A stretch of 32,000 nt of DNA from Promethearchaeota archaeon (GTDB taxonomy: Archaea > Asgardarchaeota > Thorarchaeia > Thorarchaeales > Thorarchaeaceae). The position numbers and the translations under genes were made by a program. The notes under the pieces are model-generated. The model saw only the letters and a list, made by a program, of their open reading frames with translations. It did not search any database and was not told where the DNA came from. This document shows positions 4,457-24,298 of this stretch, in pieces; the stretch's first letter is position 1; every line of letters starts with the position of its first letter. The stretch lies in contig JALVPN010000077.1 of NCBI GenBank assembly GCA_027031765.1, forward strand, positions 8,191 through 40,190, in the 5' to 3' direction.

Positions 4457-5122
4457 GTGATAGCCCTTCGACTGAAGGCACCAGAGAAAATCCTTGAGGC
4501 GCTGGAGGGACACGAGAAGATAGTGCTCTTTGGGGACTCCGGGTGTGCCCAGCTGTGTGATGTGGGCGGACTGCTCCAGCTCGAGGACATGGAGGACTTC
4601 CTGACAAGGAACGGGAAGACCGTCCTCGGTGCTGTGTTCGTCGAGGGTGGCATCTGCAATGGCCCTGTCTTCAGGAGTACGGTGCAGGAGCAACGGGCAG
4701 TGATAGACAGCGCCGACGCACTGCTGGTACAGGCCTGTGGTGTCGCAGTACAGACCATTGTAGAACACATCCCGGAGAAGGAGGCCTTCCCTGCGGCTGA
4801 CTCGATGTTCCTCGGGGTTTCAAGGGGGCGTGGGACACACTCCGAGCTCTGCGCGATGTGCGGGGACTGCATCCTCCACCTGACCGGCGGGATATGCCCA
4901 CTGGCCCGCTGTGCGAAGGGGATACTCAACGGCCCCTGCGGTGGCTCCATGAACGGCAAGTGCGAGAGGGATGAGGACACTGACTGCGCATGGCAGCTCA
5001 TCTACGACAGGCTGCGGGCACTGGGAAAGCTCGACAACATCCGGAAGGTGTGGGAGATGAAGGACTGGAGGAGCTCACATGGGCCGCGGGTCATCTCGCA
5101 CCATGGAGGCGCAATAGCCTAA
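4457..5122 (+). CDS. metV: MetV-type Fe-S/Zn partner of methylenetetrahydrofolate reductase (MTHFR C-terminal-like domain)
   Basis: Cys pattern CAMCGDC..TGGICP..RCAK..LNGPCGG..GKCE...DCAW; GGAGGT ribosome-binding site before GTG; immediately upstream of metF. Confidence 0.85.
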   Translation: MIALRLKAPEKILEALEGHEKIVLFGDSGCAQLCDVGGLLQLEDMEDFLTRNGKTVLGAVFVEGGICNGPVFRSTVQEQRAVIDSADALLVQACGVAVQTIVEHIPEKEAFPAADSMFLGVSRGRGTHSELCAMCGDCILHLTGGICPLARCAKGILNGPCGGSMNGKCERDEDTDCAWQLIYDRLRALGKLDNIRKVWEMKDWRSSHGPRVISHHGGAIA

Positions 5123-5170
5123 AGATAATAAGGGGTCTCAGCCGGTCGAGTCCAGAAACACGAGGAGAGG

Positions 5171-6103: not shown

Positions 6104-6107
6104 GAGG

Positions 6108-7025
6108 TTGTTCGTGTTCAAGAAGGAGCAACAGGTAATAGAGATTGGAGGCGTGAGCGTAGGCGGGCAGCCCGGGGAGCACCCCACCGTACTGATAGGT
6201 GGCATGTTCTTCAAGGGCCAGCCCATCGTCAAGAACACAAAGCAGGGGATATTCGACGAGGAGATGGCCCGTGAGTGGGTCGACCTTGCCAACGACATGG
6301 TGATCCGCACAGGACACCCGCTCATCATACAGGTGTACGGCCGCACCGAGACCGCCATGGAGCGTCACATAGGCTGGCTCGCAGAGAACTTCGACGGGCC
6401 CTTCATGTTCGAGTCGACGAACGCAAAGGCGCGGGTGAGAGGGATTGAGTACTGCAACGAGACCGGCCTCCATGACAGGGCAATCTACAACTCGGTCAAC
6501 CTGTCGATGAAGGACGATGAGAAACAGGTCCTGTCCAACAGCCGCATTGACTCCGCAGTTGTCCTTGGCTGGTCGCCACGCGCCACGAGCCTTGAGGAAC
6601 GGATGGAAACAGTAGGGGCAATGATTACGGAGGCCCGTGAGATGGGGCTCCAGCGGCTGCTCGTGGACCCTGCAACTCTGCCCGTGGGCGCAGGGTACGG
6701 ACTCGAACTGCGCACTATGATTGCGATAAAGTCACAGCACGGTCTGCCGACCTGTCTGGGCCCCCACAATGCGCCCTCGGCGTGGCAGTTCATCAAGCAG
6801 CCCGGCCTTGACGACGAGCCGGCACACCTCTCGGCAGTGGTCGCGGCAACGGTGGCGGCTCAGCTGTTCGCCACAGATGCGGTCATGTATGGCTCGATGG
6901 CACGGACGAGGGAGGCCTTCATTGCGGTTGCCCTGATAGGGAATGCACTCGCAGCCACTGCGGCCGAGGCATCCCATGCACTCGGGGTGGACAGGCAGCT
7001 CTTTGAACCGCCCACATCGTTCTGA
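6108..7025 (+). CDS. mtrH: MtrH-family pterin methyltransferase, divergent paralog 1
   Basis: MFVFKKEQQVIEIGGV..GGQPGEHPTVL, AIYNSVN, GPHNAPSAW; TTG start. Confidence 0.85.
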   Translation: MFVFKKEQQVIEIGGVSVGGQPGEHPTVLIGGMFFKGQPIVKNTKQGIFDEEMAREWVDLANDMVIRTGHPLIIQVYGRTETAMERHIGWLAENFDGPFMFESTNAKARVRGIEYCNETGLHDRAIYNSVNLSMKDDEKQVLSNSRIDSAVVLGWSPRATSLEERMETVGAMITEAREMGLQRLLVDPATLPVGAGYGLELRTMIAIKSQHGLPTCLGPHNAPSAWQFIKQPGLDDEPAHLSAVVAATVAAQLFATDAVMYGSMARTREAFIAVALIGNALAATAAEASHALGVDRQLFEPPTSF

Positions 7026-7048
7026 TATCTGGCAGGTGGTGGTAGACG

Positions 7049-7741
7049 GTGGGGCAGAGTGCTGACAGGCAGTGGCCGCCGGTGCCAGGCGACTTCATTG
7101 TGGGCGACCCGGGACACCCGGTGGCCATATGCACGCTCGGTAAGAAGATTGATGTTGACTGTGAGTACGCCATAATCGGGACGTGCAAGACCGAGAACAT
7201 AGGGATAGAGAGGGTCATTGTGAACATAGTCTCGAACCCAAGGGTCAGGTACCTGATACTCGCAGGCCCAGAGGTGCCGGGTCACAGGACGGGACAGTCC
7301 CTCAAGAGCCTGTATGAGAACGGGGTCGATAGCAAGACCCGGCGGATTGTGGGTGCGGAGGGGGCGATACCGTTCATTGAGAACGTGCCCCTTGAGGCGG
7401 TCGAGCGGTTCCGTCAGCAGGTACAGCTCGTCAACATGCTGAACATCACCGACCCGTCGAGGATTGCGGACACCGCTGCAGAGCTCGCACGCAAAGACCC
7501 CGGCGAGTTCCCGGACGGACCCATGTGGGTGGACTTTGGCACGCACCAGGGTGCCACCCGCGTCCTCACTCCGGGCGGTGCGGTTGCCATTGTCCCGGAG
7601 CTCGGTATTGCGCTCGACCCGTGGACGTCGCTGGTGTCATCACGGGACGCCATGGTGATAGTCTCAGTGCACCCATCAACCGTGGTCGCAGAGTTGCAGG
7701 AACAGGACGGTGGACACGTGATTGTTGTGAGGGAGGTATGA
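7049..7741 (+). CDS. mtrA: MtrA-family corrinoid protein, soluble, with an MtrB-like C-terminal extension
   Basis: CKTENIGIERVIVNIVSNP..RYLIL.G.EVPGH.TGQ...NG....I.GA.GAIPFIEN, with the Co-ligand His in the GH motif retained. No hydrophobic membrane anchor seen. Confidence 0.9.
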   Translation: MGQSADRQWPPVPGDFIVGDPGHPVAICTLGKKIDVDCEYAIIGTCKTENIGIERVIVNIVSNPRVRYLILAGPEVPGHRTGQSLKSLYENGVDSKTRRIVGAEGAIPFIENVPLEAVERFRQQVQLVNMLNITDPSRIADTAAELARKDPGEFPDGPMWVDFGTHQGATRVLTPGGAVAIVPELGIALDPWTSLVSSRDAMVIVSVHPSTVVAELQEQDGGHVIVVREV

Positions 7742-7747
7742 CAGACA

Positions 7748-8683
7748 GTGTTCGTGTTCGAACGTGAGCAGCAGATCTTTGACATCGGTGGTGTCACGGT
7801 CGGTGGCACTCCGGGAGAGAACCCGACCGTCCTTGCCGGGACGATATTCTACTCCGGTGACAAGACCGTCCGCGACGCCCGTACGGGCGAGTTCGATGCG
7901 GCGGAGGCGGAGAGGCTGGTCACGACACAGGACGAGCTGTCAGACATGACGGGCAACCCGGCCCTCGTCCAGGTGTTTGCACAGTCGCCGCGTGCTGTGG
8001 AGAGGTACATCGACTTTGTGAGCGAGGTCACTGATGCGCCGTTCCTGATAGACTCCACAGACCCTGAGACACGGGTCGCGGGGCTCCGTCATGCGGAGGA
8101 GGTGGGGCTGCTCGACAGGGCGGTGTACAACTCCGTCAACATCTCAATGACCGAGGACGAACGGATGGCCCTCTCCGAGATGGGACAGCTGTGTGCGATA
8201 GTCCTTGCTTTCAACCCCCATGACGCGACGATTGCAGGGCGCAGGGCCGTCCTCGAGTCAGGGACGCCGGAGATGGGAGAGGGGCTGCTTGAGACCTGTG
8301 AGAAGGTGGGCATCAACAGGCCACTCATAGACACAGCAATGACCTCCCTCGGGGCCGGGGCGGGGCCCGCCGTGGCATTCACCCTCGTTGCAAAGAGCCT
8401 CTATGGCTATCCCACCGGGTGCGGTATACACAATGCCGTGTCGTCGTGGCCATGGCTGCTGGGACTGAAGCGACACGACAAAGAGGCATACCGCACCTGT
8501 GATGTCGCGTCCAACGTCATCGTACAGCTGATGGGCGGTGACTTTGTCCTCTACGGGCCCATAAAGAATGCCAGGCTCGTGTTCCCTGTGGCTGCAATGG
8601 CAGACGCGCTCGCGGCCGAGTGCGTGAGCATGGAGCTCGGTGTCAGTCCGGCCGATGGGCACCCGTTCAGGCGGCTGGTATAG
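7748..8683 (+). CDS. mtrH: MtrH-family pterin methyltransferase, canonical-like paralog 2
   Basis: GGTPGENPTVLAGTIFY, PFLIDST, RAVYNSVN, GCGIHNAVSSW, GDFVLYGPI.NA. Confidence 0.92.
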   Translation: MFVFEREQQIFDIGGVTVGGTPGENPTVLAGTIFYSGDKTVRDARTGEFDAAEAERLVTTQDELSDMTGNPALVQVFAQSPRAVERYIDFVSEVTDAPFLIDSTDPETRVAGLRHAEEVGLLDRAVYNSVNISMTEDERMALSEMGQLCAIVLAFNPHDATIAGRRAVLESGTPEMGEGLLETCEKVGINRPLIDTAMTSLGAGAGPAVAFTLVAKSLYGYPTGCGIHNAVSSWPWLLGLKRHDKEAYRTCDVASNVIVQLMGGDFVLYGPIKNARLVFPVAAMADALAAECVSMELGVSPADGHPFRRLV

Positions 8684-8698
8684 GACGGGTGTAGCAGT

Positions 8699-10108
8699 AT
8701 GCCCACAAGGCCCACATTTGTGCGCCCGCCACGCATGGGCACGCTGTCACTCAGGAAGGGGCCGTTCTATACGGTGGCCTCTGTAGAACTCGGTAATACC
8801 ACCACCAAGTGTGTGGTAGTGACGACCGACCTCAGGACAGCGCGCATGTACATGCTGGGAAAGCTCGTGCGTCTGACGCGTGAGGCAAGACCACCGCGGG
8901 AGGGGGAGCTGGTCTTTGGGAGGACGCTCACTGGCACACCGCTCACACGGGAGTCCGTGGCAGAGCTGGTCGCCGAGACCCTCACGGGAGCTGTAAGGCA
9001 GGTGAGGCTGGACATTGAGCGCGACCTCCACTTCGTCGTCCGGTCCACGGGCGTGACCGCAGGGTTCGCCACACCGTCAGAGGTCGGCGAGATGGTCAGG
9101 GCCCTTGCCCAGGGCTGTCTGCAGGCCGGGATCCCGCCACGGAAGATGACAGCATCAATCTCACTCGACAGGGTCCCACCAGGGCTCCGGCGCTACAGCC
9201 TCCTTGACAGGGTCTACTTTGATGGGGCGGTGGCCGGGACGCGTCCCCCGGCGGCAACGGAAATCGTAGCAAATGAAATGGAGGGGGAGCTGGTCACTGC
9301 CGGACTGAAGGGTGCCGCAAAGAACACGCAGGTCGACTTCAGGAACCCTGTCATGACCCTGGACTTCGGCACCACACTGGCCGGACGCGTGACTGACGAG
9401 TCGTACCCCTATGCAGATACCATTGGCTCGTTTGCGGGGCTTGGTGGGGCGATACCGGACGCCCTCGTCCGTGGTGCAGGCCTTGCAGACCCGGTCACTG
9501 GTTGCGTCCTTGATGTCGAGGCCCCGAAACGGTACAGCGTGGAGGTGGGCGAGTGGCTCGAAAAAGTGCACTCGCTTGTGGATGTGCGGACAGTCCCAGC
9601 TGGTACCACCAGGTTCGGCACGGTGCCCGTAGACACCAGGGCAGCGGACGAGTCAGGGGTCGTGCTGATAGGCGTCGACGCTGGGAGGAACGGGTCTGCC
9701 CTGTCGGAGCTGGAGAGACTGGGCGCGGAGGTCTACGAGGCGGGCGGACTGGGACTGCTGATGGGCCTTGTCGACCGGGTGCAGGTACAGACAGTGCAGA
9801 GGCTCGTGAGCACCGCGGAGGAGGAGGGCATCGTGCTCCCCCGGACGGCACTTGGCCTGACAGGAAGGGGGATTACGACTGGCACGAAGCCGCGACTGGT
9901 CACAAAGTACCTGACCACTGCGAGCGGCGAGCCCTGGACAGAGTCGCATGTCCTGCTCATGGTAGAGGACGGGCTTGCCCTCGGAGCTGCGGTAGCGGCC
10001 CGCTGCATGAACTCCATGGGGACTCCCAAGCACCCGATAGGTGGCCGTCAGGGTGACGGGTGCGTGCTGGCCGCGCGGCGCGAGGCACAGAAGGGCCGTA
10101 CTGGATGA
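8699..10108 (+). CDS. Methanogenesis marker protein 14-like (DUF2114), predicted ASKHA/actin-like ATPase fold
   Basis: YTVASVELGNTTTKC, VFGRTL.G..LTRESVAELV, FVVRSTGVTAGF, ANEMEGEL.TAG.K, DFRNPV.TLDFGTTLAGR, GLGGAIPDAL. Confidence 0.85.
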   Translation: MPTRPTFVRPPRMGTLSLRKGPFYTVASVELGNTTTKCVVVTTDLRTARMYMLGKLVRLTREARPPREGELVFGRTLTGTPLTRESVAELVAETLTGAVRQVRLDIERDLHFVVRSTGVTAGFATPSEVGEMVRALAQGCLQAGIPPRKMTASISLDRVPPGLRRYSLLDRVYFDGAVAGTRPPAATEIVANEMEGELVTAGLKGAAKNTQVDFRNPVMTLDFGTTLAGRVTDESYPYADTIGSFAGLGGAIPDALVRGAGLADPVTGCVLDVEAPKRYSVEVGEWLEKVHSLVDVRTVPAGTTRFGTVPVDTRAADESGVVLIGVDAGRNGSALSELERLGAEVYEAGGLGLLMGLVDRVQVQTVQRLVSTAEEEGIVLPRTALGLTGRGITTGTKPRLVTKYLTTASGEPWTESHVLLMVEDGLALGAAVAARCMNSMGTPKHPIGGRQGDGCVLAARREAQKGRTG

Positions 10109-10174
10109 GGAAGACCTATCAGGCCACGGCCCCGTGTCAGGGGCGGCCGAGAGAGCACAGGAGGTCACCGGTCA

Positions 10175-10948
10175 GTGCTTGTCATCCCCATCAGGACCAG
10201 GGTCATCAGACCCGACGACAACATAGTGGATGTGATACTCGACGGCCTTGCCAGGGCTTGCCACGAGCTCCGTGAAGGGGACATCCTAGGGATTGCTGAA
10301 ACACCACTGGGGACGACGGAGGGGCGGGTGATTCGCCTGTCAGACGTAGTTGTGAGTGACAGGGCACGAGACCTTGCACAACGCTACGACATGGTACCGG
10401 AGGTCGCGCAGCTCGTACTGGACGAGGCCGACGAGGTCCTCGGAGGTATCCCACACGTGCTCCTCACAATCAAGAACAACACACTGATGGCCAATGCCGG
10501 GGTCGACAAGTCGAATGTGCCACCGGGCTACGCATCACTGTTGCCCGAAGACCCGGCAGCCAGTGCAGCACGGATACGGGAGGAGGTGGCCAGGCGCCTC
10601 GGCATAGGAGTGGGCGTAATCGTGATAGACAGCCGTACGCAGCCGCTGCGGCTAGGCAACGTAGGGATGGCCCTTGCTGTGGCGGGGTTCCGGCCCGTGG
10701 TCGACGAGCGTGGCAGGACAGACCTCTTCGGGAACGTCCTGCGCGTGACGCGACGTGCTGTTGCTGACAACCTGGCCTCTGCGTGCACTGCGGTGATGGG
10801 TGAGGCCGACGAGGCAGTCCCAGCGGCACTGATAAGGGATGCGCCCGTCGAGTACACGGACACTGTCCACGACTCGTCAGAGATGTGGATTTCACCCGAG
10901 GAGTGCATGTACATGGCAATCTTTGAGCAGTGGAGACGCGGGATGTGA
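10175..10948 (+). CDS. cofE: Coenzyme F420-0:L-glutamate ligase
   Basis: IPIRTRVIRPDDNIV, ANAGVDKSN, DS..QPLRLG.VG.A, D.RG..DLFG..L.VT, ADNLASA...VMGEA.E..P. Confidence 0.88.
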   Translation: MLVIPIRTRVIRPDDNIVDVILDGLARACHELREGDILGIAETPLGTTEGRVIRLSDVVVSDRARDLAQRYDMVPEVAQLVLDEADEVLGGIPHVLLTIKNNTLMANAGVDKSNVPPGYASLLPEDPAASAARIREEVARRLGIGVGVIVIDSRTQPLRLGNVGMALAVAGFRPVVDERGRTDLFGNVLRVTRRAVADNLASACTAVMGEADEAVPAALIRDAPVEYTDTVHDSSEMWISPEECMYMAIFEQWRRGM

Positions 10949-12418: not shown

Positions 12419-14662
12419 CTACTGGCCATGCGTAACAGCAAGGTGCAGGTAGTGTGCCGGCACAAGCTCTTCAAATGCACGCAGACACATCCGTGCATAC
12501 GCATCAGGGTCGTAGCGTGTCGACGGGACCACAAGTGGGAGTGCGAGGACACGGCCGGTCTGGCGGGTGACCCCAGGCTCTACGACGATGTAGTCGACCA
12601 CTTGGCCGGCGTGCAGGTGCATGCCATGTGCAGCGAGCTGTTGTGCTGCAACAGCTGCTGGGGAGAGGACCCGGTGTTCACCGGGACTCCTTGAGAGGCG
12701 CTCGTGGACGACCAGGTCACGGATGTCAACATCCCGCTCGTACAGGCGGTCGATGAATGTCTGACAGACCTCTCGGGCCTGTGGGAGCATCTTGAGAAAA
12801 CCCCTGCGTCCATGTCCGCGGGCCAGTGTACGGAGCACTGCCATCTGACAGTCGTACACGTACGTGCAGGTATCGCGTCGCCGGAGGGCCAGCCCCCGCG
12901 CCTTGATTGAACCATTGTAGAAGAGGCCATAGTACCGGTTGATGGGCGCGAGCCGTGGGCGCGAGCGCAGCGATGGGATGACCATCCAGTCATAGATACC
13001 ATTCGAACGCATGGGGATGTCCACCTCTCCAGTCACCAGCTCGCAGAACTCCTCCACAAGGTGCACATCAGGGCCATCGGCGTGTCTCAACCAGATTGAG
13101 TCCACAATCCCATGGATGACCTCGAAGCCCATGTCCTCTGCAATGTCCTTTGCACGCAGGAGGACATCACGGCCAATGGCCGTGACGGCAGCGTGCGCCT
13201 CCGCACGACCGAACCGCGCGTTCCGGAAGCCAAGATAGCCGAAGCAGGACACGAGCACGCCCTTCAGTGTGTGTTGCATCCGTCCGTAGCGGTCTGCATC
13301 ACGGCCCTCAGTCACCAGCCTCTTGAATGCATCCCGCTTTGCAATGACCAGTCTGAGTGCCTCGGGTATGATACCACGCCTCTGTCTGCACACCTTGAGC
13401 CCGAGCCCCGGGACTTCGACACATGACCGCTGGTCGTAGGGGCACTCGTGCCCCATGCATATGGTCTCGGGGCTGATGTTACGGGTCAACATCAGGGTGG
13501 GGTACATTGATGCAAAGTCGCACTCGACCACGTCCTCGTACACGTCGGGTGAGGGCTGTAGGACCAGGCCACCACGGTCAGCAGCGCTCAGACTGGACAC
13601 GGACTTGAGGGACTCTGGGTTACGCCCGACAGGGGGGACGAGGATGTCGAGCTTGTATGCAGTGTAGGTCTGGATAGCCGCATTGACCCCACCAATCGAC
13701 ATCCGGGCCGCCTGCTGGGGCCGTATCAGGGCAATCCGTGACGCCTCGACAATACCCTCTATTCCCTGCGGCGAGTAGTATAGGCTGGTCTCTTCGTCCA
13801 CATGGATGCGCCCGTTCAGCAGGACTGGCGGGCCGGGGCGGTACGCGACGTGGTTGTACTGCCAGAAGGACTGCGGCCGCGGTGCCCTAACACTGAGTGG
13901 CGAGCCATCACGGGAGAGCACGAGGTCGATGCCGTGGGCACGTGCACGGTGTGCAAGGTGTGGAAAGAGGAATCCATCACCACCACGGGTGATGACCACA
14001 TCGGGGTCGATCCGGTCGAATGTGTCCTGGAAGGAGAGGAGCGTATCACGTTCGTCCGGACACTGTACCCGGTATACCCTGTCACGTTGTCTCAGGGCAA
14101 TGCACTCTACCGGGTCATCCCTGTGGGGGACGAGGTGCTCACCCCTTGTACATACAGCCAAGTGCACCGTGGTGAGTGGTGGGACTGTGTATTCCGTGTC
14201 CTCACGCCGGTCCAGACACTGCACGGCCCGTGCTACTGGGCCCTCCCTGTAGATGCGCACGCGTCCGAACGGGAACACATCATGCCCTATGAAGAACTGC
14301 TGCACCGGGTCAATGTCGGCATGGAAGACTGTTGCACCAGGCAGTCTGCGCAGGTCACGGGCCAGTGACGGCACCGAGAGGGGGGTCGTGCGGACCCGTA
14401 TGACTGGACGGCGGGACGAGTCATAGACCGAAACGAACCTGTATACCAGGGAGACCTCCCGGACGGCGGGATGAGAGCTGACAGCAGTCAGCAGGTACTT
14501 TTGGTCACCGCAAGACTGGAGACAGGGAGACGACACGAAGAGGGACGGGTAGAACTCGTAGTCGAGGGCGTCCGTGCGGCCCCCGTCCTTGACCCAGAGG
14601 ACCAAACAGTCCTTGGAACGGTTGATGTCTGCATCAAGTAACCAGCAGTCCTGCCAGCTCAT
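12419..14662 (-). CDS. polB2: Family B DNA polymerase, PolB2 group (degenerate catalytic and exonuclease motifs)
   Basis: Motif A DFASMYPTLM, motif B K..LVSCFGYLG, motif C HGIVDS (canonical YGDTDS); no ExoI DxE; ATGA overlap with the upstream small gene. Confidence 0.88.
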   Translation of the reverse strand: MSWQDCWLLDADINRSKDCLVLWVKDGGRTDALDYEFYPSLFVSSPCLQSCGDQKYLLTAVSSHPAVREVSLVYRFVSVYDSSRRPVIRVRTTPLSVPSLARDLRRLPGATVFHADIDPVQQFFIGHDVFPFGRVRIYREGPVARAVQCLDRREDTEYTVPPLTTVHLAVCTRGEHLVPHRDDPVECIALRQRDRVYRVQCPDERDTLLSFQDTFDRIDPDVVITRGGDGFLFPHLAHRARAHGIDLVLSRDGSPLSVRAPRPQSFWQYNHVAYRPGPPVLLNGRIHVDEETSLYYSPQGIEGIVEASRIALIRPQQAARMSIGGVNAAIQTYTAYKLDILVPPVGRNPESLKSVSSLSAADRGGLVLQPSPDVYEDVVECDFASMYPTLMLTRNISPETICMGHECPYDQRSCVEVPGLGLKVCRQRRGIIPEALRLVIAKRDAFKRLVTEGRDADRYGRMQHTLKGVLVSCFGYLGFRNARFGRAEAHAAVTAIGRDVLLRAKDIAEDMGFEVIHGIVDSIWLRHADGPDVHLVEEFCELVTGEVDIPMRSNGIYDWMVIPSLRSRPRLAPINRYYGLFYNGSIKARGLALRRRDTCTYVYDCQMAVLRTLARGHGRRGFLKMLPQAREVCQTFIDRLYERDVDIRDLVVHERLSRSPGEHRVLSPAAVAAQQLAAHGMHLHAGQVVDYIVVEPGVTRQTGRVLALPLVVPSTRYDPDAYARMCLRAFEELVPAHYLHLAVTHGQ

Positions 14663-14931
14663 CGTTGTGACTCCAGCTCCGCCTCTAGTCCTTCGACCCG
14701 CGACTCCAGGGCCTCAATGTCCTCGATAATGCCCAGCAGGGCCATCAGGAACACGACCTCAGTGACCCGCGGTGTGACTGCCACTGTACCGGCATCGGCG
14801 TACTGGCGTGCATAGTCAAAGATGCGTGCAAGGCGGGCGCGGCGGGATGGAGTGAGGACTCTGGAGAACGCATGCCACCGTTTCTCTTCGGCATCTACTG
14901 CGTCCCTGAAAGTGCGCACTGTGCGGCCCAC
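14659..14931 (-). CDS. Small alpha-helical PolB2-associated protein (about 90 aa)
   Basis: GRTVRTFR....E..RW..F.R.L....R...F.YAR..A.A pattern typical of the small protein encoded next to PolB2, plus a coiled-coil tail. Start moved to GTG 14931 from the track's 15159. Confidence 0.75.
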   Translation of the reverse strand: MGRTVRTFRDAVDAEEKRWHAFSRVLTPSRRARLARIFDYARQYADAGTVAVTPRVTEVVFLMALLGIIEDIEALESRVEGLEAELESQR

Positions 14932-15200
14932 CGTATAACACACCTCACCAGGGTTTTCCATGGACAGGTAGGGGATGGGTGAGGGCATGACCAACTGTGC
15001 GGACGCTTCTGAGGTTTGCTGATGGCAGCAGTCTGCGAGGACAGACAGAAACGGCAAGGGCGGGTGACCGAAAGTAAAGGGCAAAGTACAGACGGGTAGG
15101 ACGGAGGGCCCGCACAGCCGGCCGCCGGGGGCTGCCATAGGACAGGGGTTGCGCCACACGACAGCACCGTGATACCCCGCCGCAAAACAGAACGAGGAAC

Positions 15201-15208: not shown

Positions 15209-15278
15209 CGGCCATATGTTACAGGCACACAGTCCCACTCATACGAATACGAGTCTGGCCGTCCAAAGATTCAGTGGG

Positions 15279-15854
15279 GTGCTCAAAATAGTAACTGCGC
15301 TGTTCAAAGTAATCCTCATGGGTGATGGCTCCGTCGGAAAGACAAGCCTGCGACGGGTGTACATGGGCGAGGGGTTCAAGGCATCGTACATGATCACAAT
15401 AGGGGCCGACTTTGCCGTCAAGAAGATGACCCTAGAAGGAGGCCACGATGTCAGCATTCAGATCTGGGACCTGGCAGGCCAAGAACACTTCAAGAGCGTC
15501 CGCTCCACGTTCTACCGTGGTGCCCAGGGTGCACTCGCAGTGTACTCCACAGTGGAACGGAGCTCCTTCGAGAACATTGAGAACTGGGTGGAAGAGTGCT
15601 GGAGCAACGCAGGCAAGAAGATTCCAGTCGTGTTGATTGGGAACAAGATTGACCTCCGGGAACAGTTCATAGACAACCCCGTAATGCGCCAGACCATTGT
15701 CACTACTGAGGAGGGACAGGCCCTAGCCGACAGAATTGCCCAGCGGGGCGTCCACGCGTCCTTCATAGAGACCTCTGCCAAGACCGGGAAGAACGTCGAG
15801 GCTGCATTCCTCGAACTGATAATCAGGATCTTGGAGGCCGGCGGGCTCTCATAG
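15279..15854 (+). CDS. Rab-like small GTPase 1
   Basis: G1 GDGSVGKTS, switch I TIGADF, G3 WDLAGQE, YRGA, G4 NKID, G5 ETSAKTG; no C-terminal prenylation Cys. Start is GTG 15279 or ATA 15288. Confidence 0.93.
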   Translation: MLKIVTALFKVILMGDGSVGKTSLRRVYMGEGFKASYMITIGADFAVKKMTLEGGHDVSIQIWDLAGQEHFKSVRSTFYRGAQGALAVYSTVERSSFENIENWVEECWSNAGKKIPVVLIGNKIDLREQFIDNPVMRQTIVTTEEGQALADRIAQRGVHASFIETSAKTGKNVEAAFLELIIRILEAGGLS

Positions 15855-15960: not shown

Positions 15961-17175
15961 TCAGGCGGTCATGAGCACGCACGCGGATATGCGCTGGTAG
16001 AACTCACTTGCAGCGGTCTGGAGCACTTCAGGGGCGTCAGACATCGTGTGTATTTGCAGCTGACACTTCTTCGAGACCAGGTCACCGACCATCAGGACAT
16101 GGAGGACGACCTTCAGTCCCGTATAGCTACCTGTGCCAGCGGCCTTCAGGGATGCCATCAAGACACTGCTTTCACGACGGGTCTTGCAGTCGAAGGTGTG
16201 GAGGTTGCACCTGTCGAGCATGTCCCTGATGGCCTCGAACATCGTCACGGGGTCTACAGGCACCTCGTGCTCACGACTCCACCCCTTCATGGCCCGCAGG
16301 AGAGTGGCCTCTTCAGATGGCGAGATGTTGAGTGGTTCCAGCCGCTCGAAAAATGTCCGGACGGTGCAGTTCCCCGCAGGTGCAGACGCCCGCTGGCCGT
16401 CGACATCTGTGAACACCACCAGCGGGACAATCTCTCCCTCTATGCACTCGCGTGTCGCTGACATCTCAAACGTGACAGACCGTGCCTCTCCAGGTCCAAT
16501 ACGTGGGACTGTCCGCACAGTGCCATCGACCGGTCTCAGGCTGTCGGCCGGGTAGGCGAGCAGGCGTACGTCCACGTCAGTGATTGGGCCCTGCGTGTCA
16601 TTCGACACCCGGATCCTGAAGGTGACAGTCCCATCATTGACTGAGAGCTCGTTTGAGACTGAAACATCCATCCTCGTCCGGATGGGCACGGGGTCTAAGG
16701 ACATGGGCGCGGCAGGCTGGGAAACTGCTGTGGAAACGACCACCTGTGGGCGCTGACTCCCGGGTGTCCCCTGAGTGTGAGAATGGAGCACGGCCCACTC
16801 GTGTGCATACTCAGCTGCCTGCACTACCATCTCCAGAGGGTCGTCTTGGGCCAAGGCGAGGGTGTCCGACACCCCACTGGGGTCGATGGTGGTGAGGAAG
16901 ACAAGGGCTGCTGCGCGTACCTCTCCGGTGTCGTCATGACAGGCAATCTCAAGGCCCCCAATGGCCTCGGGCCCAAACTCAGCAAGCCGACATACAGCAA
17001 GGAGCCGGGTCTCAGGCTCGCCCGCGAGAGATGCGTCCTTGCATGCCTGTAGAGACCTCAAGCCCGACAGCATACGCGAGAGAGGGGGGTCAGACTCCTC
17101 AAGAAAGAGGGCCCGTCGTAGGCGTGAGAGGATGCCGCCAGAGTCATCAGGTGTGTTCTCCATGCCCGGACTCAT
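15961..17175 (-). CDS. HEAT-repeat protein with C-terminal Ig-like + platform (adaptin/coatomer appendage-like) domains
   Basis: HEAT-like RLLAVCRLAEFG.EAI..L....HDD..EVRAAA...L; low-complexity linker; beta-sandwich (FRIRVSNDTQGPITDVDVRL...IGPGEARSVTFEM...GEIVPLVVFTD); alpha/beta C-terminal domain. Confidence 0.7.
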   Translation of the reverse strand: MSPGMENTPDDSGGILSRLRRALFLEESDPPLSRMLSGLRSLQACKDASLAGEPETRLLAVCRLAEFGPEAIGGLEIACHDDTGEVRAAALVFLTTIDPSGVSDTLALAQDDPLEMVVQAAEYAHEWAVLHSHTQGTPGSQRPQVVVSTAVSQPAAPMSLDPVPIRTRMDVSVSNELSVNDGTVTFRIRVSNDTQGPITDVDVRLLAYPADSLRPVDGTVRTVPRIGPGEARSVTFEMSATRECIEGEIVPLVVFTDVDGQRASAPAGNCTVRTFFERLEPLNISPSEEATLLRAMKGWSREHEVPVDPVTMFEAIRDMLDRCNLHTFDCKTRRESSVLMASLKAAGTGSYTGLKVVLHVLMVGDLVSKKCQLQIHTMSDAPEVLQTAASEFYQRISACVLMTA

Positions 17176-17421: not shown

Positions 17422-18552
17422 ATGAGCGAGCACGAACTCACACTGTTCTTGAGACCAGAGACCATCAAGCCGCCTGCCGAGCACGGCTCCGAGCTCACAC
17501 GGAGGATTGCACTGAACCATGCAGGCCGATTGATTGCTGTGGGAATGCAGGACAAGAGCATCCGGCTATACGATGCAACCAACTTCGAGGAGATCCAGAA
17601 GCTCCAGGACAACTTCCTGAGCACGGCTCTGGCATTCAGTCCACGAGGGGACACTGTGGCATCTGGTGGTGTCGACAGGGTGGTAAAGATATGGGACATA
17701 AGGACGGGCGAGGTGCTCACGACACTGGAAGGGCACACATACCCGATTCTCGGGCTCTCGTTCTCACCTGACGGTAGCAGGCTCCTCTCAGCCAGCGGAG
17801 ACACGACGCTCATAGTCTGGGATCTCAACAGTGGCACCGAGTCCAGCAGGCTCAGGGGCCACAAGTTATACGTCATGTCCTGCGACTGGCATCCAGAGGA
17901 CGACCTCGTCGTGTCGGGGGCTGTCGACGCCACCATTGCACTGTGGGACCCGAACACTGGCAAGATGTTGGGCCAGTACGGCGAACACAGGACCGCGGTC
18001 CATGTGGTCAGGTTCTCCCCACAGGGTGACAGGCTCCTGTCCACATCATCGGACATGACGTGCAAGGTCTGGGACGTGGGCGGGGAGAGCGTCAGGCCCG
18101 TGCACACCCTTCAGGGGCACACAGCAGAGGTGAGGACGGCCACATGGAGCAGTGACGGAGAGCTCATCGCCTCAGGGTCCAGTGAGAAGGAGCTCTTCCT
18201 CTGGTCACTGGACTCACTGCAGGTGGAGGGGGAGGCACGTACAGCTGGGGAGATTGACGGGATAGAGTGGTTCCCTAGCAAGAAGGAGTTCGTCACAGCC
18301 GACAGTTCGGGGGCAATTACCCGCTGGCGCGTACAGGAGCTGTCCATTGTCCTGGCGCCATTCCGCGACCTGCTGGCAGAAATCCAGGCAGACAGCACAG
18401 GGGCGCACCGTGAGGAGCACATCCGCCAGTTTGACGACCTCGTGCAGCGCTACGGTGAGGAGACCCTGAAGGACAAGAGGGTGTTCTATCTGATGTGGCA
18501 GTGCAAGCGTGCACTGGGGCTCCTCAAGGGCAGACCAGCCGGTACACGGTGA
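17422..18552 (+). CDS. WD40 beta-propeller protein (about 7 blades) with a short helical C-terminal domain
   Basis: Repeated GH...FSPxG..L.S.S.D..V.IWD units (VVKIWD, LIVWD, IALWD, CKVWD, LFLWS, ITRWR); GAGGCG ribosome-binding site 6 nt before ATG 17422. Confidence 0.92.
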   Translation: MSEHELTLFLRPETIKPPAEHGSELTRRIALNHAGRLIAVGMQDKSIRLYDATNFEEIQKLQDNFLSTALAFSPRGDTVASGGVDRVVKIWDIRTGEVLTTLEGHTYPILGLSFSPDGSRLLSASGDTTLIVWDLNSGTESSRLRGHKLYVMSCDWHPEDDLVVSGAVDATIALWDPNTGKMLGQYGEHRTAVHVVRFSPQGDRLLSTSSDMTCKVWDVGGESVRPVHTLQGHTAEVRTATWSSDGELIASGSSEKELFLWSLDSLQVEGEARTAGEIDGIEWFPSKKEFVTADSSGAITRWRVQELSIVLAPFRDLLAEIQADSTGAHREEHIRQFDDLVQRYGEETLKDKRVFYLMWQCKRALGLLKGRPAGTR

Positions 18553-18568: not shown

Positions 18569-19096
18569 TCACTGCTTCGTCGCGTCAATCATTAGTCGAC
18601 AGAGCATGGCGAATGCCTCTTCTACATTCTCTCCTGTCAACGCACTCGACTCAACATAGAGAAAACCATTGGCCTCCGCATACTCCTTGCCCTCGTCGGT
18701 TGCGACCACCCTGCTGTCGGTAAGGTCCACCTTGTTTGCTACGACCACCATCGGTACTTCCCGCCCGATATTGCTGAAACCCTCCTCTTTCCACCGGTCG
18801 AGGTTCAGGAAGGTGCGTCGCCGGGTCACATCAAAGACCAAGAGGCCCCCACGAGCACCCCTATAGAACCCCTGCCTGACGACTTCGAAACGGGGCTGTC
18901 CTGCAAGATCCCAGACTTGGAGCACGACGTTTGCGTCACGGTCGAGCAGTGACACCCTCTTGATTGCAAAGTCGGAGCCAATGGTACGTTTGTAGTCGGC
19001 CTCAAAAAAGTCCTGTGTGAACCGCAGGGTCAGTGCTGTCTTCCCGACCGCGCCGTCCCCAAGCATGACGACCTTGAACCGGTACTCAGCGGGCAT
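18569..19096 (-). CDS. Rab-like small GTPase 2
   Basis: G1 GDGAVGKTA, TIGSDF, WDLAGQ, FYRGA, NKVD, ESSALTG; no prenylation motif. Start ATG 19096 after GAGGATG. Confidence 0.93.
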   Translation of the reverse strand: MPAEYRFKVVMLGDGAVGKTALTLRFTQDFFEADYKRTIGSDFAIKRVSLLDRDANVVLQVWDLAGQPRFEVVRQGFYRGARGGLLVFDVTRRRTFLNLDRWKEEGFSNIGREVPMVVVANKVDLTDSRVVATDEGKEYAEANGFLYVESSALTGENVEEAFAMLCRLMIDATKQ

Positions 19097-19328
19097 GTGA
19101 CACACATCCTCGGTGGCTCACGGGTCGCGAGACCCTATAATCGTGACGCAGTCCAATGGCAGGACGCAAGTCGCTAGCGCAGGCCTCCCTTTTGAAGATT
19201 GCCTATTGCAACAAAGAGATGCGTGTTGCCTCCGACCAGTAGCGGCAGCACGCACTACTGACGGTGGCGGCACGTACATGCGCACTGGTCGTTGTTGCGC
19301 AGCATGTGGGTCATTGAGGCCAGTATTG

Positions 19329-19379: not shown

Positions 19380-19760
19380 ATGAAGCGACCGGACTACGTG
19401 TTACTCGCTGAGATACTTACCGAGATGAACATGGAGGGTGGCTACACGGCATCTATTCTTGCCAGGGCAGATGGTCTGCTCGTGGCCTCTGCAAAGACCC
19501 CATCTGTGGACCAGGACATTGTGGCCGCCATGGCCGGGTATGTGTCTGCGACCGTGGAGAGGATGCGGGACGAACTCGCACTCGGGAATGTGCATGACAT
19601 CACCGTGAGGTGTTCAGAGGGCAAGGCGGTGTTCAAGAAGGTGCCGGTGACGGGGGAGGACCTGATCCTTGCAGCACTGATGCCAAGGGGGATACGATAT
19701 CACGCGAGACTCCTCGGCAAGACCGCGACAAAGATAGCGAGGATGTTCGGTAAGCAGTAG
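19380..19760 (+). CDS. Roadblock/LC7 (MglB/LAMTOR-like) domain protein
   Basis: 126 aa; SILARADGLLVAS, DIVAAMA......ERM..EL.LG....I.V....GK; GGGGTG ribosome-binding site. Confidence 0.88.
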   Translation: MKRPDYVLLAEILTEMNMEGGYTASILARADGLLVASAKTPSVDQDIVAAMAGYVSATVERMRDELALGNVHDITVRCSEGKAVFKKVPVTGEDLILAALMPRGIRYHARLLGKTATKIARMFGKQ

Positions 19761-20032: not shown

Positions 20033-20356
20033 GTGGCGGAGAACACCGGAACGGCAGACACGGACAATGCGGACGGGGCAATTGAGATACTGTTCTTCAA
20101 GTCTGACAGCTGCCCGTTCTGCCCCCGGGCCGAGGAGGTGATCCGTGAGGTCATCGGGGAGTTCGACCCCGGCGTGTTCAGACTCGTCGTCATCAACGTC
20201 TCGGAGAAGCCGGAGGTCGCAGAGGAGTATGGCGTGTTTGCCCTGCCCACCGTCGTTGTGGGTGGCATGTCAGTGACTGGAGTCCCCGAACCCGAGATGC
20301 TGGTAAAGATTATTCTCGGTTCAAGACTCTCAAGGAAAAGGAGAACGACCAGATGA
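20033..20356 (+). CDS. Thioredoxin-fold protein (CPFC), KaiB-like in sequence
   Basis: CPFC motif, INVSEKPEVAEEYGVFALPT cis-Pro loop; ATGA overlap with kaiC 1. Confidence 0.85.
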   Translation: MAENTGTADTDNADGAIEILFFKSDSCPFCPRAEEVIREVIGEFDPGVFRLVVINVSEKPEVAEEYGVFALPTVVVGGMSVTGVPEPEMLVKIILGSRLSRKRRTTR

Positions 20357-21096
20357 GCAAGTTCACAATTGAGCGCGTCAGGACCGGCATCCCCGGTCTG
20401 GATGAGCTGATTGAGGGCGGGTTCCCCAGAGGGGATACCATCCTTGTCGCAGGAAAGGCAGGCACTGGCAAGAGCATCCTTGCAGTGCAGTTCCTGTACA
20501 AGGGGGCAACCGAGTACAACGAGCCCGGTGTGCTCGTGACTCTGGAAGAGCCGCCCCACCTGATAAAGAGGAATATGATGAGGTTTGGCATGGACCTCGA
20601 GAGACTGGAGAGGGAGGGACTGCTTGCAATAGTCGACCTGTCACCGTCCAAAGAGAGGACGCCGGTCATGGTCGGGGAGTATCCCAGTTTTGACCTCTCA
20701 GGACTGGAGGCAATAATCCTCAGTCATATCCGACGCATAAAGGCCAAGCGGGTGGTCATTGACACGCTCTCAATAATGGCATACAAGTTCCGGAGCAGGG
20801 ACATCCTCCGGGAAGAGTTCTTCAAACTGTGTGCGAGCATTACCGGCGAGGGGTGCACCCTGTTGCTCACCAGCGAGATCCCGGCACAGGACACCGGACT
20901 CGGCGTCTTTGACATTGAGACCTTCCTCGCATCGGGAGTAATCGTCCTGTACAACGAGAAGATCAGCGAAACGTCACGTTCGCGCTCAATTGAAATACTC
21001 AAACTGCGCGGCTCAAAACACAGCTCACGTATCCACTCGATGCGGATAACCGACGAGGGGATCCGTGTATGGCCGGGTGAGATACCCGGACACTGA
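20353..21096 (+). CDS. kaiC: KaiC/RAD55-family single-domain ATPase 1
   Basis: TGIPGLDELIEGGFPRG, Walker A GKAGTGKS, catalytic TLEE, Walker B VVIDT, R-finger ILKLRGSKH. Confidence 0.92.
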   Translation: MSKFTIERVRTGIPGLDELIEGGFPRGDTILVAGKAGTGKSILAVQFLYKGATEYNEPGVLVTLEEPPHLIKRNMMRFGMDLERLEREGLLAIVDLSPSKERTPVMVGEYPSFDLSGLEAIILSHIRRIKAKRVVIDTLSIMAYKFRSRDILREEFFKLCASITGEGCTLLLTSEIPAQDTGLGVFDIETFLASGVIVLYNEKISETSRSRSIEILKLRGSKHSSRIHSMRITDEGIRVWPGEIPGH

Positions 21097-21126
21097 CCGA
21101 CAACACTGTAGTGTGGAGTGTGACCT

Positions 21127-21834
21127 ATGAGGCCAGAAGTGAGGACAACAAGCAGGCGCCGCGCACTGACGGCACGGCCCATGATAGACGACCTTGTGAA
21201 GTTCGGCCAGTTGACACAGGTCTCGTACGTGCTTGTTGGCCCGCTGGGTTCCGGCAAGACCACATACGCTGAGGCGTTCATTGCCGAGGGGCTGAAGCAG
21301 GGCTTCCCTGGGGTGTTCGTCACCACGGACGTGTCGCCACGGGTCATAAGGAATGACATGAGCCGCCATGGATGGCCTGTGGAACGGTACGAGCAGTCAG
21401 GACAGATGGTGTTCATTGACGGGTACTCAGAACGGATGGGGGCACCAAAGATGGGCAGTGCCCGCGCCCTGACAAAGGTCGATGACATAAGCGAGCTCGG
21501 TATTGTGCTGTCCGAGGTCCTCGAAGGCCTTGTGGTGGCGCGCGTGGTCGTTGACAGCCTGTCGACCCTGATCCTCCACTCAGCACCCACCACCATGCCA
21601 CGGGCTGTCCAGAGGCTGAGTGGCCGCATCACACAGAGCTCGCACAGCATAATGTACATCCTTGAAGAGGGTGTGCACGACGACAAGGTGTACGCTACAT
21701 TCTCGTATCTCATGGACGCTGTGCTCAGGTTCCGACTCGTCGAACGTGAGGGACAGACAGTCCACCAGGTGCGGATGGAGCGGATGCGTGGCACAGAGGC
21801 CTCACGTGAGTGGCACGACTTTGTGCTCGAATGA
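21127..21834 (+). CDS. KaiC/RAD55-family single-domain ATPase 2 (catalytic EE replaced)
   Basis: Walker A GPLGSGKTT, VTTDV in place of the EE motif, FIDGYS, Walker B VVVDSLS, RMERMRG. Confidence 0.88.
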   Translation: MRPEVRTTSRRRALTARPMIDDLVKFGQLTQVSYVLVGPLGSGKTTYAEAFIAEGLKQGFPGVFVTTDVSPRVIRNDMSRHGWPVERYEQSGQMVFIDGYSERMGAPKMGSARALTKVDDISELGIVLSEVLEGLVVARVVVDSLSTLILHSAPTTMPRAVQRLSGRITQSSHSIMYILEEGVHDDKVYATFSYLMDAVLRFRLVEREGQTVHQVRMERMRGTEASREWHDFVLE

Positions 21835-21997: not shown

Positions 21998-24298
21998 TTG
22001 AGGAAACTGATTGTCGCGACATTACGGGAGATACTCTGTGCATCAATGTCACTCGATGATGGACTGTCAGCAATCCAGAACATATCCATAGGGCACACGG
22101 AGGAGTCGGACATCCCATATGACATTGCAAGGGCAATAGAGGAGATACTCCTCCGTAGACCGGGACTGGCAAGTGCCAAGTTGATGGAGTTGACAGTACG
22201 CCTCTCCTCGGACCCGGACCGGACGCTCCCAAAGATGTTGATGCTCCTTGACACGAGGTCCAACACTGCATATAGGAGGGGCGAGTGCGAGATACTGCCA
22301 GATATCCAAGCCCTACCACAGCTGCTGGACATCCTTGGCGAGCTGTCCAGCGCAGTCATGGACGGGCTGTCCCTGAACCTCAGACCACTGATCCCGTTCC
22401 TTGCAGACGAGATGCTCATGACGCTGACATCCATAGTCGACCGGGGACACCCCGCGTCGACGCGGCTTGCAGTCAGGGAGACCCACCACCTCGCGAGCAT
22501 CCTAGTAGACAGGGGCTTCTACGAGTGTGCGGAGCTGCTCTTGGAGGCGCTCGTACGGGTCGCGGCCGAGGTGCAGGACGAGAGGCTCTACTTTGAGGTC
22601 GCCATCGACCATGCCGTCGTACTGACCGAGACCGGTCTCTACAAGCAGGCACGGACTATCCTCGAAGACCTTGAGAGGAGGGTCAAGGAGAACAGTGACG
22701 TGGCCGCACAGGCGGCAGTGGCCCTGCAGATTGCAGTGAACGAGACCCGTGATGACACTGTGGACCATACCACTGCAAGGGCGTCTGCGGACAGGGCGGT
22801 CGAGCTGCACCGGCTGGCAGTGGAACAGGGGCGCATGGCGCCTGACGAACTGGCCGTTGCCGAGCTGACGGTGGGGGTGAACATCTTGGCCAACGGCTGG
22901 CGGGAGGCCGTCCCACAGGCAATGGAGCGTCTGGAGGCCGGGCTTGCGGTCTACGAGGAGATGGACTCGCTCACCCAAAGACAGGCCTCCCACTGTTTCA
23001 AGGTCCTGGCCGGACTGGGGTTTGCGCACGGCCTGCTGAGTGACCACGACAATGTGACTCTGAGCATCAGGTACCTGAGACGTGCTGAGGCACTGTTGAG
23101 GGAGTCTGTGAAACCAGAGGAGGACATCACAGAGAAGATTGCTGCATGTGAACACTGCATTGGCTGGGTGTGTCTGTGTTCGGAGTCCGACGAACACTGG
23201 GAGCTGGGCATCGACGCCTTCAGAAAGGCCACCGAGTTGCGTCGTGCCCTTGTCGGTGAGGGGCGGCTGTCATGGCTCGCCCTACTCGGTAGCGAGCTTG
23301 GCCATGCACTGTCGTTGATACGGACTGCAGGAAGGATGGACGAAGGGCTCCAAGAACGCCTCGTAAGGATTATGCACCAGTATACCCTGTTGTTCCCGAC
23401 CGATCTGCGGGCCTTCGAAGAGGCTGCCATTGCTACCTACAACATTGTGTGGCTAGCCTCACGACATGGGGCGGAGCTGTCACAGGAGTTGCTCCGACTC
23501 CTTGAGGACATAGACAGGATGTTGACCGATGCGACGCCTGTGGAGGACTCTGTCTTCGTGCGCGGGATCTCCCTACTGATGCCATACCTGAAGTCGGACT
23601 GGAGAGCACTGCGGTACAGGGCCGAGGCCCTGCTCCATGCTGGCGGCCCACTCAGGGACGTGGTACTGCTGATGAGCACGCTGGCAAAGATGCGCATCGC
23701 TCTAGACTACATGACCCTAGAGAGCATCACGCAGGTGATAACGGGTCATGACGGACAACTGGACGGCACCGACGAGCTAATGGCGAGGTACTGGGACGGA
23801 CAGGTCGTACTTGCAAGGGCAGTGGCAGCATTCTACGGTAACAAGGACTACACTACACTCGCCCAAGGGCTGTACGACGCGGCCGTGATGCTCAGAGGCG
23901 TACTACATGCAACGACCGACTTTGAAGAGGCTGCCGAGTTTGTAAGGGCCACGGCCGGCTCGCTAGCGGGTGTACTCCTGAGGTTCGCAACGGCCCTGGA
24001 GAAGACCTACGGCGCGAGAATAGAGAAGAGCACCCCCGACATCACCCCAGCAGACCTTGAGGACACGGGCTTCAACTTCATCCTGTCAGAGGACTGGATT
24101 GGACTGCTGAAGATAACCAACGCGTATCTTGAGATGGTGGAGAGAGCAGAGCTGGCCCAGGCAATGCCATACCTCAACGCAGTCTTCTCAAACATTGCAA
24201 GTGCACTACGGATGATGGACCGCATTGCAATGGTCGACAGGCGCATGCTGAACAGGCTCGGCGAGGAAATGAACAGGCGGTACTATCTCAGGCGCTGA
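21998..24298 (+). CDS. Large alpha-helical TPR-like/solenoid hypothetical protein (766 aa)
   Basis: Long ORF with TPR-like helical pairs (GFYECAELLLEAL, GLYKQARTILEDL, LEAGLAVYEEM, ACEHCIGWV...AFRKATELRR); no catalytic motif recognised. Confidence 0.75.
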   Translation: MRKLIVATLREILCASMSLDDGLSAIQNISIGHTEESDIPYDIARAIEEILLRRPGLASAKLMELTVRLSSDPDRTLPKMLMLLDTRSNTAYRRGECEILPDIQALPQLLDILGELSSAVMDGLSLNLRPLIPFLADEMLMTLTSIVDRGHPASTRLAVRETHHLASILVDRGFYECAELLLEALVRVAAEVQDERLYFEVAIDHAVVLTETGLYKQARTILEDLERRVKENSDVAAQAAVALQIAVNETRDDTVDHTTARASADRAVELHRLAVEQGRMAPDELAVAELTVGVNILANGWREAVPQAMERLEAGLAVYEEMDSLTQRQASHCFKVLAGLGFAHGLLSDHDNVTLSIRYLRRAEALLRESVKPEEDITEKIAACEHCIGWVCLCSESDEHWELGIDAFRKATELRRALVGEGRLSWLALLGSELGHALSLIRTAGRMDEGLQERLVRIMHQYTLLFPTDLRAFEEAAIATYNIVWLASRHGAELSQELLRLLEDIDRMLTDATPVEDSVFVRGISLLMPYLKSDWRALRYRAEALLHAGGPLRDVVLLMSTLAKMRIALDYMTLESITQVITGHDGQLDGTDELMARYWDGQVVLARAVAAFYGNKDYTTLAQGLYDAAVMLRGVLHATTDFEEAAEFVRATAGSLAGVLLRFATALEKTYGARIEKSTPDITPADLEDTGFNFILSEDWIGLLKITNAYLEMVERAELAQAMPYLNAVFSNIASALRMMDRIAMVDRRMLNRLGEEMNRRYYLRR

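Follow-up and report, generated by a model that had tools for sequence, protein, structure and literature searches.

Vesicle traffic in eukaryotes relies on the appendage domains ("ears") of the adaptor (AP) and coatomer (COPI) complexes as hubs, and the history of these domains in prokaryotes is relevant to eukaryogenesis. A gene on the minus strand of a 32,000-nucleotide stretch of Thorarchaeal DNA (assembly GCA_027031765.1, contig JALVPN010000077.1, positions 8,191 to 40,190; hereafter the window) encodes a protein, P0001, in which a few HEAT repeats are followed by a linker and an ear. An initial annotation, made from the sequence alone, took this HEAT-ear protein to be a complete trunk-hinge-ear molecule in miniature and a plausible precursor of the large adaptor subunits. 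The locus therefore raises the question of whether the protein is homologous to those subunits along its whole length or reached a similar layout by another route. We favor the second answer, at a probability of about 0.7: HEAT-ear would be a soluble cytoplasmic protein built on an Asgard ear module, serving as a two-ended adaptor and made by domain shuffling within the Thorarchaeia, and would be neither an ortholog nor a direct precursor of the AP/COPI large subunits.

Predicted Fold of the Ear

The C-terminal part of the protein was modelled with AlphaFold2 (AF2) using an alignment of 86 ear modules (A2). The model of residues 165–404 had a predicted local distance difference test score (pLDDT) of 96.9 and a predicted template modelling score (pTM) of 0.86; it replaced an earlier model, computed from a three-sequence full-length alignment (pLDDT 50, falling below 40 over the last 137 residues), in which the ear was unusable. 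An eight-to-ten-stranded sandwich (strands spanning model residues 7–117, with model residues 1–113 all-beta at pLDDT >93) is followed by a helix, a strand, a second helix, a four-stranded sheet and a long C-terminal helix.

When this model was compared with the PDB using Foldseek, the top 15 matches were all appendages of beta-COP, AP-2 alpha or beta2, or gamma-COP (E 1.5e-9 to 3.5e-7, ∼240 columns), the best being beta-COP (E 1.5e-9, TM-score 0.67). An independent structure search of 48,161 chains, followed by a second look, ranked alpha-adaptin highest in its first pass (Z 16.1 over 211 residues) and scored beta-COP at Z 18.5 (225 of 243 residues, root-mean-square deviation (rmsd) 3.3), AP-2 alpha-adaptin at 16.0–16.5, beta2 at 13.8–14.1 and gamma-COP at 13.5–13.8. 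Matches to both appendage lobes, covering 206–225 residues in one rigid superposition, stood 4–6 Z units above single-lobe immunoglobulin (Ig)-like matches, which reached just Z ∼10–12.6, and the platform alone matched that of AP-4 beta (2mj7; Z 13.8, rmsd 2.6). Eukaryotic coatomer-beta clusters were likewise returned by a shape search of the ESM Atlas (TM-score 0.67–0.68 over ∼225 residues). A feature search of the same resource with residues 275–404 gave a top cluster with the AP4E, COP-gamma and Coatomer_g platform families (11–13% share, score 0.79), which is taken as a lead only.

Residues 165–404 are confidently predicted to form a bilobed adaptin/COPI-type appendage, with beta-COP as the single best match. 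As in the COPI and AP-2 ears used for comparison (PDB 9qpq_H, 1pzd/1r4x, 1b9k/1w80 and 1e42; Pfam Coatamer_beta_C with Coatomer_b_Cpla, and Alpha_adaptinC2 with B2-adapt-app_C), the Ig-like sandwich leads directly into an alpha/beta platform and the two lobes keep the same mutual orientation; sequence identity to those ears, however, is 9–13%, and the Trp of their platform FxxxW motif is replaced. The initial annotation had read an Ig-like sandwich (residues 166–277 in the model) and a platform (278–404) into this half of the protein and had likened them to the beta-COP/adaptin appendage; modelling and the Foldseek comparison bore out both points, with AP-2 and COPI ears recovered over both lobes. 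The BBSome proteins BBS9 and BBS1 (6vbu, 6xt9) also matched through a GAE-type sandwich and platform (186–196 residues, Z 10.4–11.7), but they scored below COPI and AP-2; furthermore, BBS proteins carry N-terminal propellers and assemble in an octameric complex, features for which no counterpart is seen in HEAT-ear.

Signals in the sequence itself were weak and pointed in the same direction. P0001 had no match to the Pfam ear families; Coatomer_b_Cpla was matched by 7 of the 86 module members (best E 1.1e-4) and GAE_BBS1, weakly, by 8. The A2 profile aligned with PDB beta-COP over 58 residues at the start of the platform (beta-COP 841–897, E 0.07), and most members of the module family share the P...F opening of the beta-COP platform. 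Coatamer_beta_C, Alpha_adaptinC2 and B2-adapt-app_C were not among the 25 Pfam families listed for module members, which is not evidence of their absence.

HEAT Repeats, Linker and N-terminal Helix

In P0001, Pfam HEAT_2 fell below its cut-off (residues 52–124, E 0.012, 18.3 bits against 27.7), and it was matched by 11 of 12 orthologs with a best E of 1.8e-16. A profile of the N-terminal 170 residues searched against the PDB retrieved alphaRep scaffolds (E 3e-29), E. coli YibA (9.5e-7) and MTH187. Because of these matches, the repeats are assigned to the prokaryotic PBS-lyase/alphaRep type. The first AF2 model placed helices at residues 42–132 with pLDDT 70–80. The two to three HEAT repeats expected from the initial annotation are thus present, as ∼2.5 repeats at residues 52–132. 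They resemble PBS-lyase-type HEAT proteins (alphaRep; YibA, 1oyz; MTH187, 1te4) in repeat type and differ from them in having only ∼2.5 repeats, with a family-specific invariant motif before and an ear after.

The comparison with adaptins is less close. Like the AP/COPI large subunits, HEAT-ear carries its ear at the C-terminus, after a helical-repeat domain and a flexible linker. However, Adaptin_N was absent from the 11 families listed in a Pfam scan (E up to 1) of the 12 orthologs, a list that includes HEAT_2, HEAT, Cnd1 and HEAT_PBS, and the structured N-terminal part, of the PBS type, spans ∼90 residues, as opposed to about 500–600 for the Adaptin_N-type trunk of adaptins.

Judged by eye, residues 133–165 contain much Pro, Ser, Gln and Thr; the stretch is poorly conserved and of low pLDDT (22–33 in the first AF2 model), and is therefore regarded as a flexible linker, in agreement with the Pro/Ser/Gln-rich hinge first proposed for residues ∼130–170. 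Both sequence and length vary among orthologs. At just 33 residues and with no recognisable clathrin-box-like conservation, this linker differs from the adaptin hinge; nor were mu or sigma partner genes seen nearby.

Within the N-terminal half, conservation peaks directly before the HEAT repeats, at residues 41–52, where S41, Q43, C45, K46, D47, L50 and G52 are invariant or near-invariant among 12 sequences. Upstream of it, near residues 16–30, a basic amphipathic helix is strong in 6 of 10 proteins (hydrophobic moment 0.8–0.95, net charge +4 to +6, values that shuffled sequences rarely reach). This conserved helix is a candidate for binding a membrane or a partner, or may be a linear motif for another ear.

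The Gene and Its Relatives

The translation of 15961–17175 is stop-free over 404 residues and contains all of the sequence motifs cited in the initial annotation; the database copy (P0002) starts at Met5 and has 400 residues. Since the frame is conserved as a single-copy open frame (about 405–445 residues) in 41 other genomes, we consider it a real gene and not a chance open reading frame (ORF). The stretch is contained in one DNA sequencing run, from a hydrothermal-vent metagenome that is probably the sample it came from, and no RNA run is listed for it; this says nothing on expression.

In the database, the closest relatives carry the name Candidatus Thorarchaeota. Only two relatives came up in a word-indexed search, against 614 proteins in an exhaustive profile search, among them about ten full-length HEAT-ear orthologs, at 29–37% identity to the copy in the window, and more than 130 representatives of 200–2,800 residues that share only the ear (profile positions ∼180–393). 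An NCBIfam scan of the protein gave no match, and phmmer of P0001 against the PDB returned noise only (azurin, E 0.3). With no hydrophobic segment in 10 of the 11 full-length sequences by a simple hydropathy scan, HEAT-ear is predicted to be soluble and to lack transmembrane segments.

The Ear as a Mobile Asgard Module

Ear modules turned up in 151 of the 301 Asgard genomes sampled, including 71 of 76 in the Thorarchaeal family of the window and most or all of those in three others (f9, 63 of 68; f16, 5 of 5; f24, 6 of 7); they were not found in several other sampled families (0 of 28, 0 of 19 and 0 of 21). Elsewhere the N-terminal partners of the ear are SBBP, PQQ and WD40 propellers, leucine-rich repeats (LRR), NosD beta-helices, LVIVD, TPR, UFL1/PCI and Zn-ribbon rods, with one EAP30/Vps36 fusion (P0153). 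By a simple hydropathy scan, 90 of 149 representatives have a transmembrane-like segment no more than 150 residues upstream of the ear, and many of these proteins have a signal-like N-terminus together with an SBBP, NosD, LVIVD or PKD-type region resembling an ectodomain. In most family members, then, the ear looks like the tail of a membrane protein, just after the span. The window's own genome has two ear proteins, the second being a 667-residue frame with a much better-scoring match (362 bits; contig C112, 2630–3331, minus strand).

The distribution of the HEAT-ear architecture is far narrower than that of the ear. Its N-terminal half occurs in single copy in 41 of the 76 genomes of its own family (six sampled genera plus that of the window), and none was found in the 225 other sampled Asgard genomes save for two generic HEAT matches. 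Because the ear sits on many unrelated N-terminal domains while HEAT plus ear is confined to part of one family, the ear looks like a mobile module and HEAT-ear like one outcome of domain shuffling.

A maximum-likelihood (ML) tree of the 86 ears, computed without an outgroup, united the 11 HEAT-group ears in one clade (support 100/100) on a long branch, with P0001 as its deepest and longest member. A recent copying of the ear from the Thorarchaeal Zn-ribbon-rod family was also considered and found no support, the HEAT-group ears lying on their own long branch. In other Thorarchaeal genomes, three ear paralogs (G290:C327:8586–9275, G290:C133:2382–3074 and G236:C1:672142–672831) are each interrupted within the ear by one in-frame TGA or TAG; these may be pseudogenes, sequencing errors or cases of recoding.

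Relation to Described Asgard Ear Proteins

Fusions of Vps28/Vps23 with adaptin/COPI C-terminal domains and UFL1 were described by Liu et al. 2021 (10.1101/2020.10.19.343400), and "adaptin appendage regions" composed of Ig and TBP-like lobes were described in Asgard and other archaea by Makarova et al. 2024 (PMC10936438). HEAT-ear resembles these proteins in its two-lobed Ig plus TBP-like module and in belonging to a group of multidomain proteins with patchy, lineage-specific architectures, and relatives of the module include UFL1/PCI fusions and an EAP30/Vps36 fusion, as in those reports. Unlike the published Asgard ear proteins, it lacks Vps28-C, the steadiness box, longin and UFL1, and there are no ESCRT genes among its neighbors. 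A protein made of HEAT_2, linker and ear was not described in the literature searched, which did not cover the full architecture lists of Makarova et al. The combination is a new domain architecture of an already known Asgard ear module.

Genomic Neighborhood

Features of the gene and its immediate neighbors are collected in Table 1.

Table 1. Features of the HEAT-ear gene and adjacent genes (window coordinates; residues refer to P0001).
Feature	Residues	Coordinates	Strand	Basis
HEAT-ear protein P0001, whole gene	1–404	15961..17175	-	404 aa, stop-free translation
Basic amphipathic helix	∼12–30	17086..17142	-	Hydrophobic moment, ortholog alignment
S-L-Q-A-C-K-D-A-S-L-x-G motif	41–52	17020..17055	-	12-sequence alignment
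∼2.5 PBS-type HEAT repeats (HEAT_2)	52–132	16780..17022	-	Pfam, PDB profile matches, AF2 helices
Pro/Ser/Gln/Thr-rich flexible linker ("hinge")	133–165	16681..16779	-	Low pLDDT, variable alignment
Ig-like beta-sandwich, proximal ear lobe (predicted)	166–277	16345..16680	-	AF2, pLDDT >93
Alpha/beta platform (TBP-like/helix-grip), distal ear lobe (predicted)	278–404	15964..16344	-	AF2, pLDDT 91–98
Ras/Rab-like small GTPase 1, convergent with HEAT-ear gene		15216..15854	+	Pfam Ras, 5.6e-49
WD40 propeller with conserved helical C-terminal tail		17422..18552	+	Pfam WD40, 9.6e-51
Ras/Rab-like small GTPase 2		18569..19105	-	Pfam Ras, 8.6e-50; syntenic in L001, L002, L004
Roadblock/LC7 protein		19380..19760	+	Pfam Robl_LC7, 1.6e-6; syntenic in L001, L002

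GTPase 1 adjoins the HEAT-ear gene in all four orthologous loci and is 73–84% identical to the window's copy. Compared with its orthologs, the copy in the window is 24 residues longer at the N-terminus and has Ile where their start Met stands. A prenylation-type Cys motif was absent from the C-terminal end of both GTPases. On the other side, the WD40 gene is transcribed divergently from the HEAT-ear gene. By alignment its start is Met36 of the ORF (17422), which leaves a gap of 246 bp; counting from the ORF's first ATG (17317) gives 141 bp, and the corresponding distance is about 142 bp in both L001 and L002 but 59 bp in L004. WD40 orthologs are 54–58% identical to the window's copy, and the protein ends in a conserved helical tail of ∼70 residues (...KRVFYxMWQCKxALGLLKG). 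Roadblock/LC7 proteins are typical small-GTPase partners (MglB-like).

Three further Thorarchaeal loci have the genes in the same order (GTPase 1, HEAT-ear, WD40, GTPase 2, Roadblock, thioredoxin-like and two KaiC-like genes), and a fourth has part of it. The genes for family-B DNA polymerase (PolB), LarC and CofE likewise recur at these loci, and the neighborhood is therefore best described as general synteny; since the genes alternate strands, it is not an operon. Genome G046, which is 97% complete and comes from a sister genus, has the WD40 ortholog (L006:2183–3322, 57% identity) directly after GTPase 1 and GTPase 2 next; a HEAT-ear gene is missing there. Because that cluster is intact without it, the HEAT-ear gene is an accessory and not an obligate part. 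A 152-residue ORF lying between GTPase 1 and WD40 in another genome (G143) was considered as a remnant of the gene and showed no similarity (hhalign probability 0.2). A complex prediction combining residues 36–411 of the WD40 protein, GTPase 1, GTP and HEAT-ear scored 0.00 without controls, and speaks neither for nor against binding.

The wider window encodes PolB, LarC, CofE, a cluster of the MtrH/MtrA/MetF type, KaiC-like ATPases and EF-2. No mu-homology or longin/sigma-like genes were seen among the window ORFs; the genome was not searched for them. The two KaiC-like genes (20353–21834, plus strand) are tandem and single-domain and, in L001 and L002, share synteny with the GTPase/Roadblock cluster; a thioredoxin-fold gene precedes the pair in the orthologous loci, and a small ORF lies just upstream of it in the window. 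Next to them, 21998–24298 (plus strand) encodes a 766-residue protein without a Pfam match, and in L001 and L002 its place is taken by genes for proteins of 762–766 residues. On the other flank, 14659–15159 (minus strand) encodes a 166-residue protein without a Pfam match, where the orthologous loci have a DUF8156 gene beside PolB. Lastly, 4457–10948 (plus strand) holds co-directional MetF-C-like, MtrH, MtrA, MtrH, DUF2114 (methanogenesis marker 14-like) and CofE genes, with no membrane Mtr subunits beside them in the window.

Alternative Explanations

One alternative is that the C-terminal half is a generic CARDB/NEW3-like Ig domain followed by an unrelated domain, with only a superficial likeness to adaptins. 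The initial annotation had itself named this as the finding that would speak against its proposal. The sole Pfam match of P0001 in the region is indeed a sub-threshold one to NEW3/NPCBM_assoc (E 0.018–0.049), and many single-lobe Ig matches were found at Z 10–12. Because the best PDB matches are adaptin/COPI appendages over both lobes, and the platform is matched on its own both in structure and, among family members, by Coatomer_b_Cpla, this explanation is refuted as far as predicted structure shows. Alternatively, HEAT-ear could be a true miniature proto-adaptin, homologous along its whole chain to the AP/COPI large subunits and forming a minimal coat with the GTPases and the WD40 protein. 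Its domain order is that of adaptins, with a helical-repeat N-terminus followed by a disordered linker and an ear closest to beta-COP, and Rab-like GTPases, WD40 and Roadblock genes flank it in four Thorarchaeal loci. In Asgard archaea, the AP domains are "not fused to each other" according to Eme et al. 2023 (PMC10307638), so that a fused form would be notable. However, the trunk consists of ∼90 residues of PBS/alphaRep-type HEAT_2 with Adaptin_N missing from the families listed, the hinge is short and poorly conserved, dozens of unrelated domains are found joined to the same ear, and the architecture is known from part of one family and from no other sampled Asgard family. The protein also evolves fast when compared with GTPase 1 and WD40, the GTPase 1-WD40-GTPase 2 cluster exists without it in G046, and the window ORFs include no mu- or sigma-like genes. 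Thus the proposal of a complete trunk-hinge-ear precursor was not borne out, and we regard such a proto-adaptin as very improbable. We are about as skeptical, or slightly more so, of a weaker form of descent, in which HEAT-ear is a surviving side branch of the AP/COPI/TSET large-subunit lineage, its ear and helical repeats having been joined in an Asgard ancestor, and still acts as a minimal GTPase-controlled membrane adaptor with the adjacent GTPases, WD40 and Roadblock proteins; it is compatible with the ear's long separate branch and with beta-COP being the best match.

A narrower form of the explanation we prefer is that the protein is an effector or regulator of the local small-GTPase module, with the HEAT domain binding GTP-bound GTPase 1 or 2, in the manner of eukaryotic effectors built of helical repeats, and the ear recruiting further factors. 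The gene does lie between two Ras/Rab-like GTPases, by WD40 and Roadblock, in all four orthologous loci, and is arranged divergently with the WD40 gene. Yet the whole region is syntenic, PolB, LarC and CofE included, so this adjacency may be inherited and not functional; the strands alternate, and the cluster persists without the HEAT-ear gene in another genus. We feel that this version is unlikely, although it deserves more credit than either form of descent.

The preferred explanation, a soluble two-ended adaptor made by domain shuffling, has several observations weighing against it. Its two-ended mode of action is drawn from the anatomy of the protein. The platform FxxxW motif, which holds the ligand-binding Trp of alpha- and beta2-adaptin, gamma-COP and beta-COP, is not kept: as read from the beta-COP alignment and column counts, the F position is E289 in P0001 (Phe in 8 of the 11 orthologs and in 69 of the 86 module relatives), and the W position is L293 in P0001, Arg or Lys in orthologs and Leu or Ile in module relatives. 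Ligand specificity and function are therefore not simply transferable from the AP-2 and COPI ears. In P0001 itself, the amphipathic helix is a weak one (moment 0.53). Lastly, the long separate branch of the HEAT-group ears in the ML tree means that an old, independent origin of the architecture is possible.

Proposed Mode of Action

In the arrangement we envisage, a short PBS-type HEAT_2 domain would be tethered through the ∼33-residue flexible linker to an adaptin/COPI-type appendage. The ear would serve as a docking hub, with a W299-x-R301-E302-H303 patch, which is invariant in orthologs and located on the first platform strand, binding a partner or a short motif; in the alignment, W299 corresponds to the second Trp of beta-COP. 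Another partner would be bound by the HEAT domain and its invariant SLQACKD motif, and the basic amphipathic N-terminal helix could make peripheral contact with a membrane. Because most sister ears closely follow transmembrane segments and look like the tails of membrane proteins, HEAT-ear would probably plug into an ear-recognising network that it shares with them. The locus suggests, weakly, that this network may be controlled by the neighboring Rab-like GTPases.

Implications

If the explanation by shuffling holds, a Thorarchaeal lineage joined an ear, a flexible linker and helical repeats and so arrived at an adaptin-like layout by combining modules and not by descent. The broader pattern may matter more than this one protein: a large family of ears exists in Thor- and Loki-type archaea, mostly close behind transmembrane segments. 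Ears carried as the tails of membrane proteins suggest an undescribed system that recognises them, and HEAT-ear, being small and soluble, would be well suited as bait to find it.

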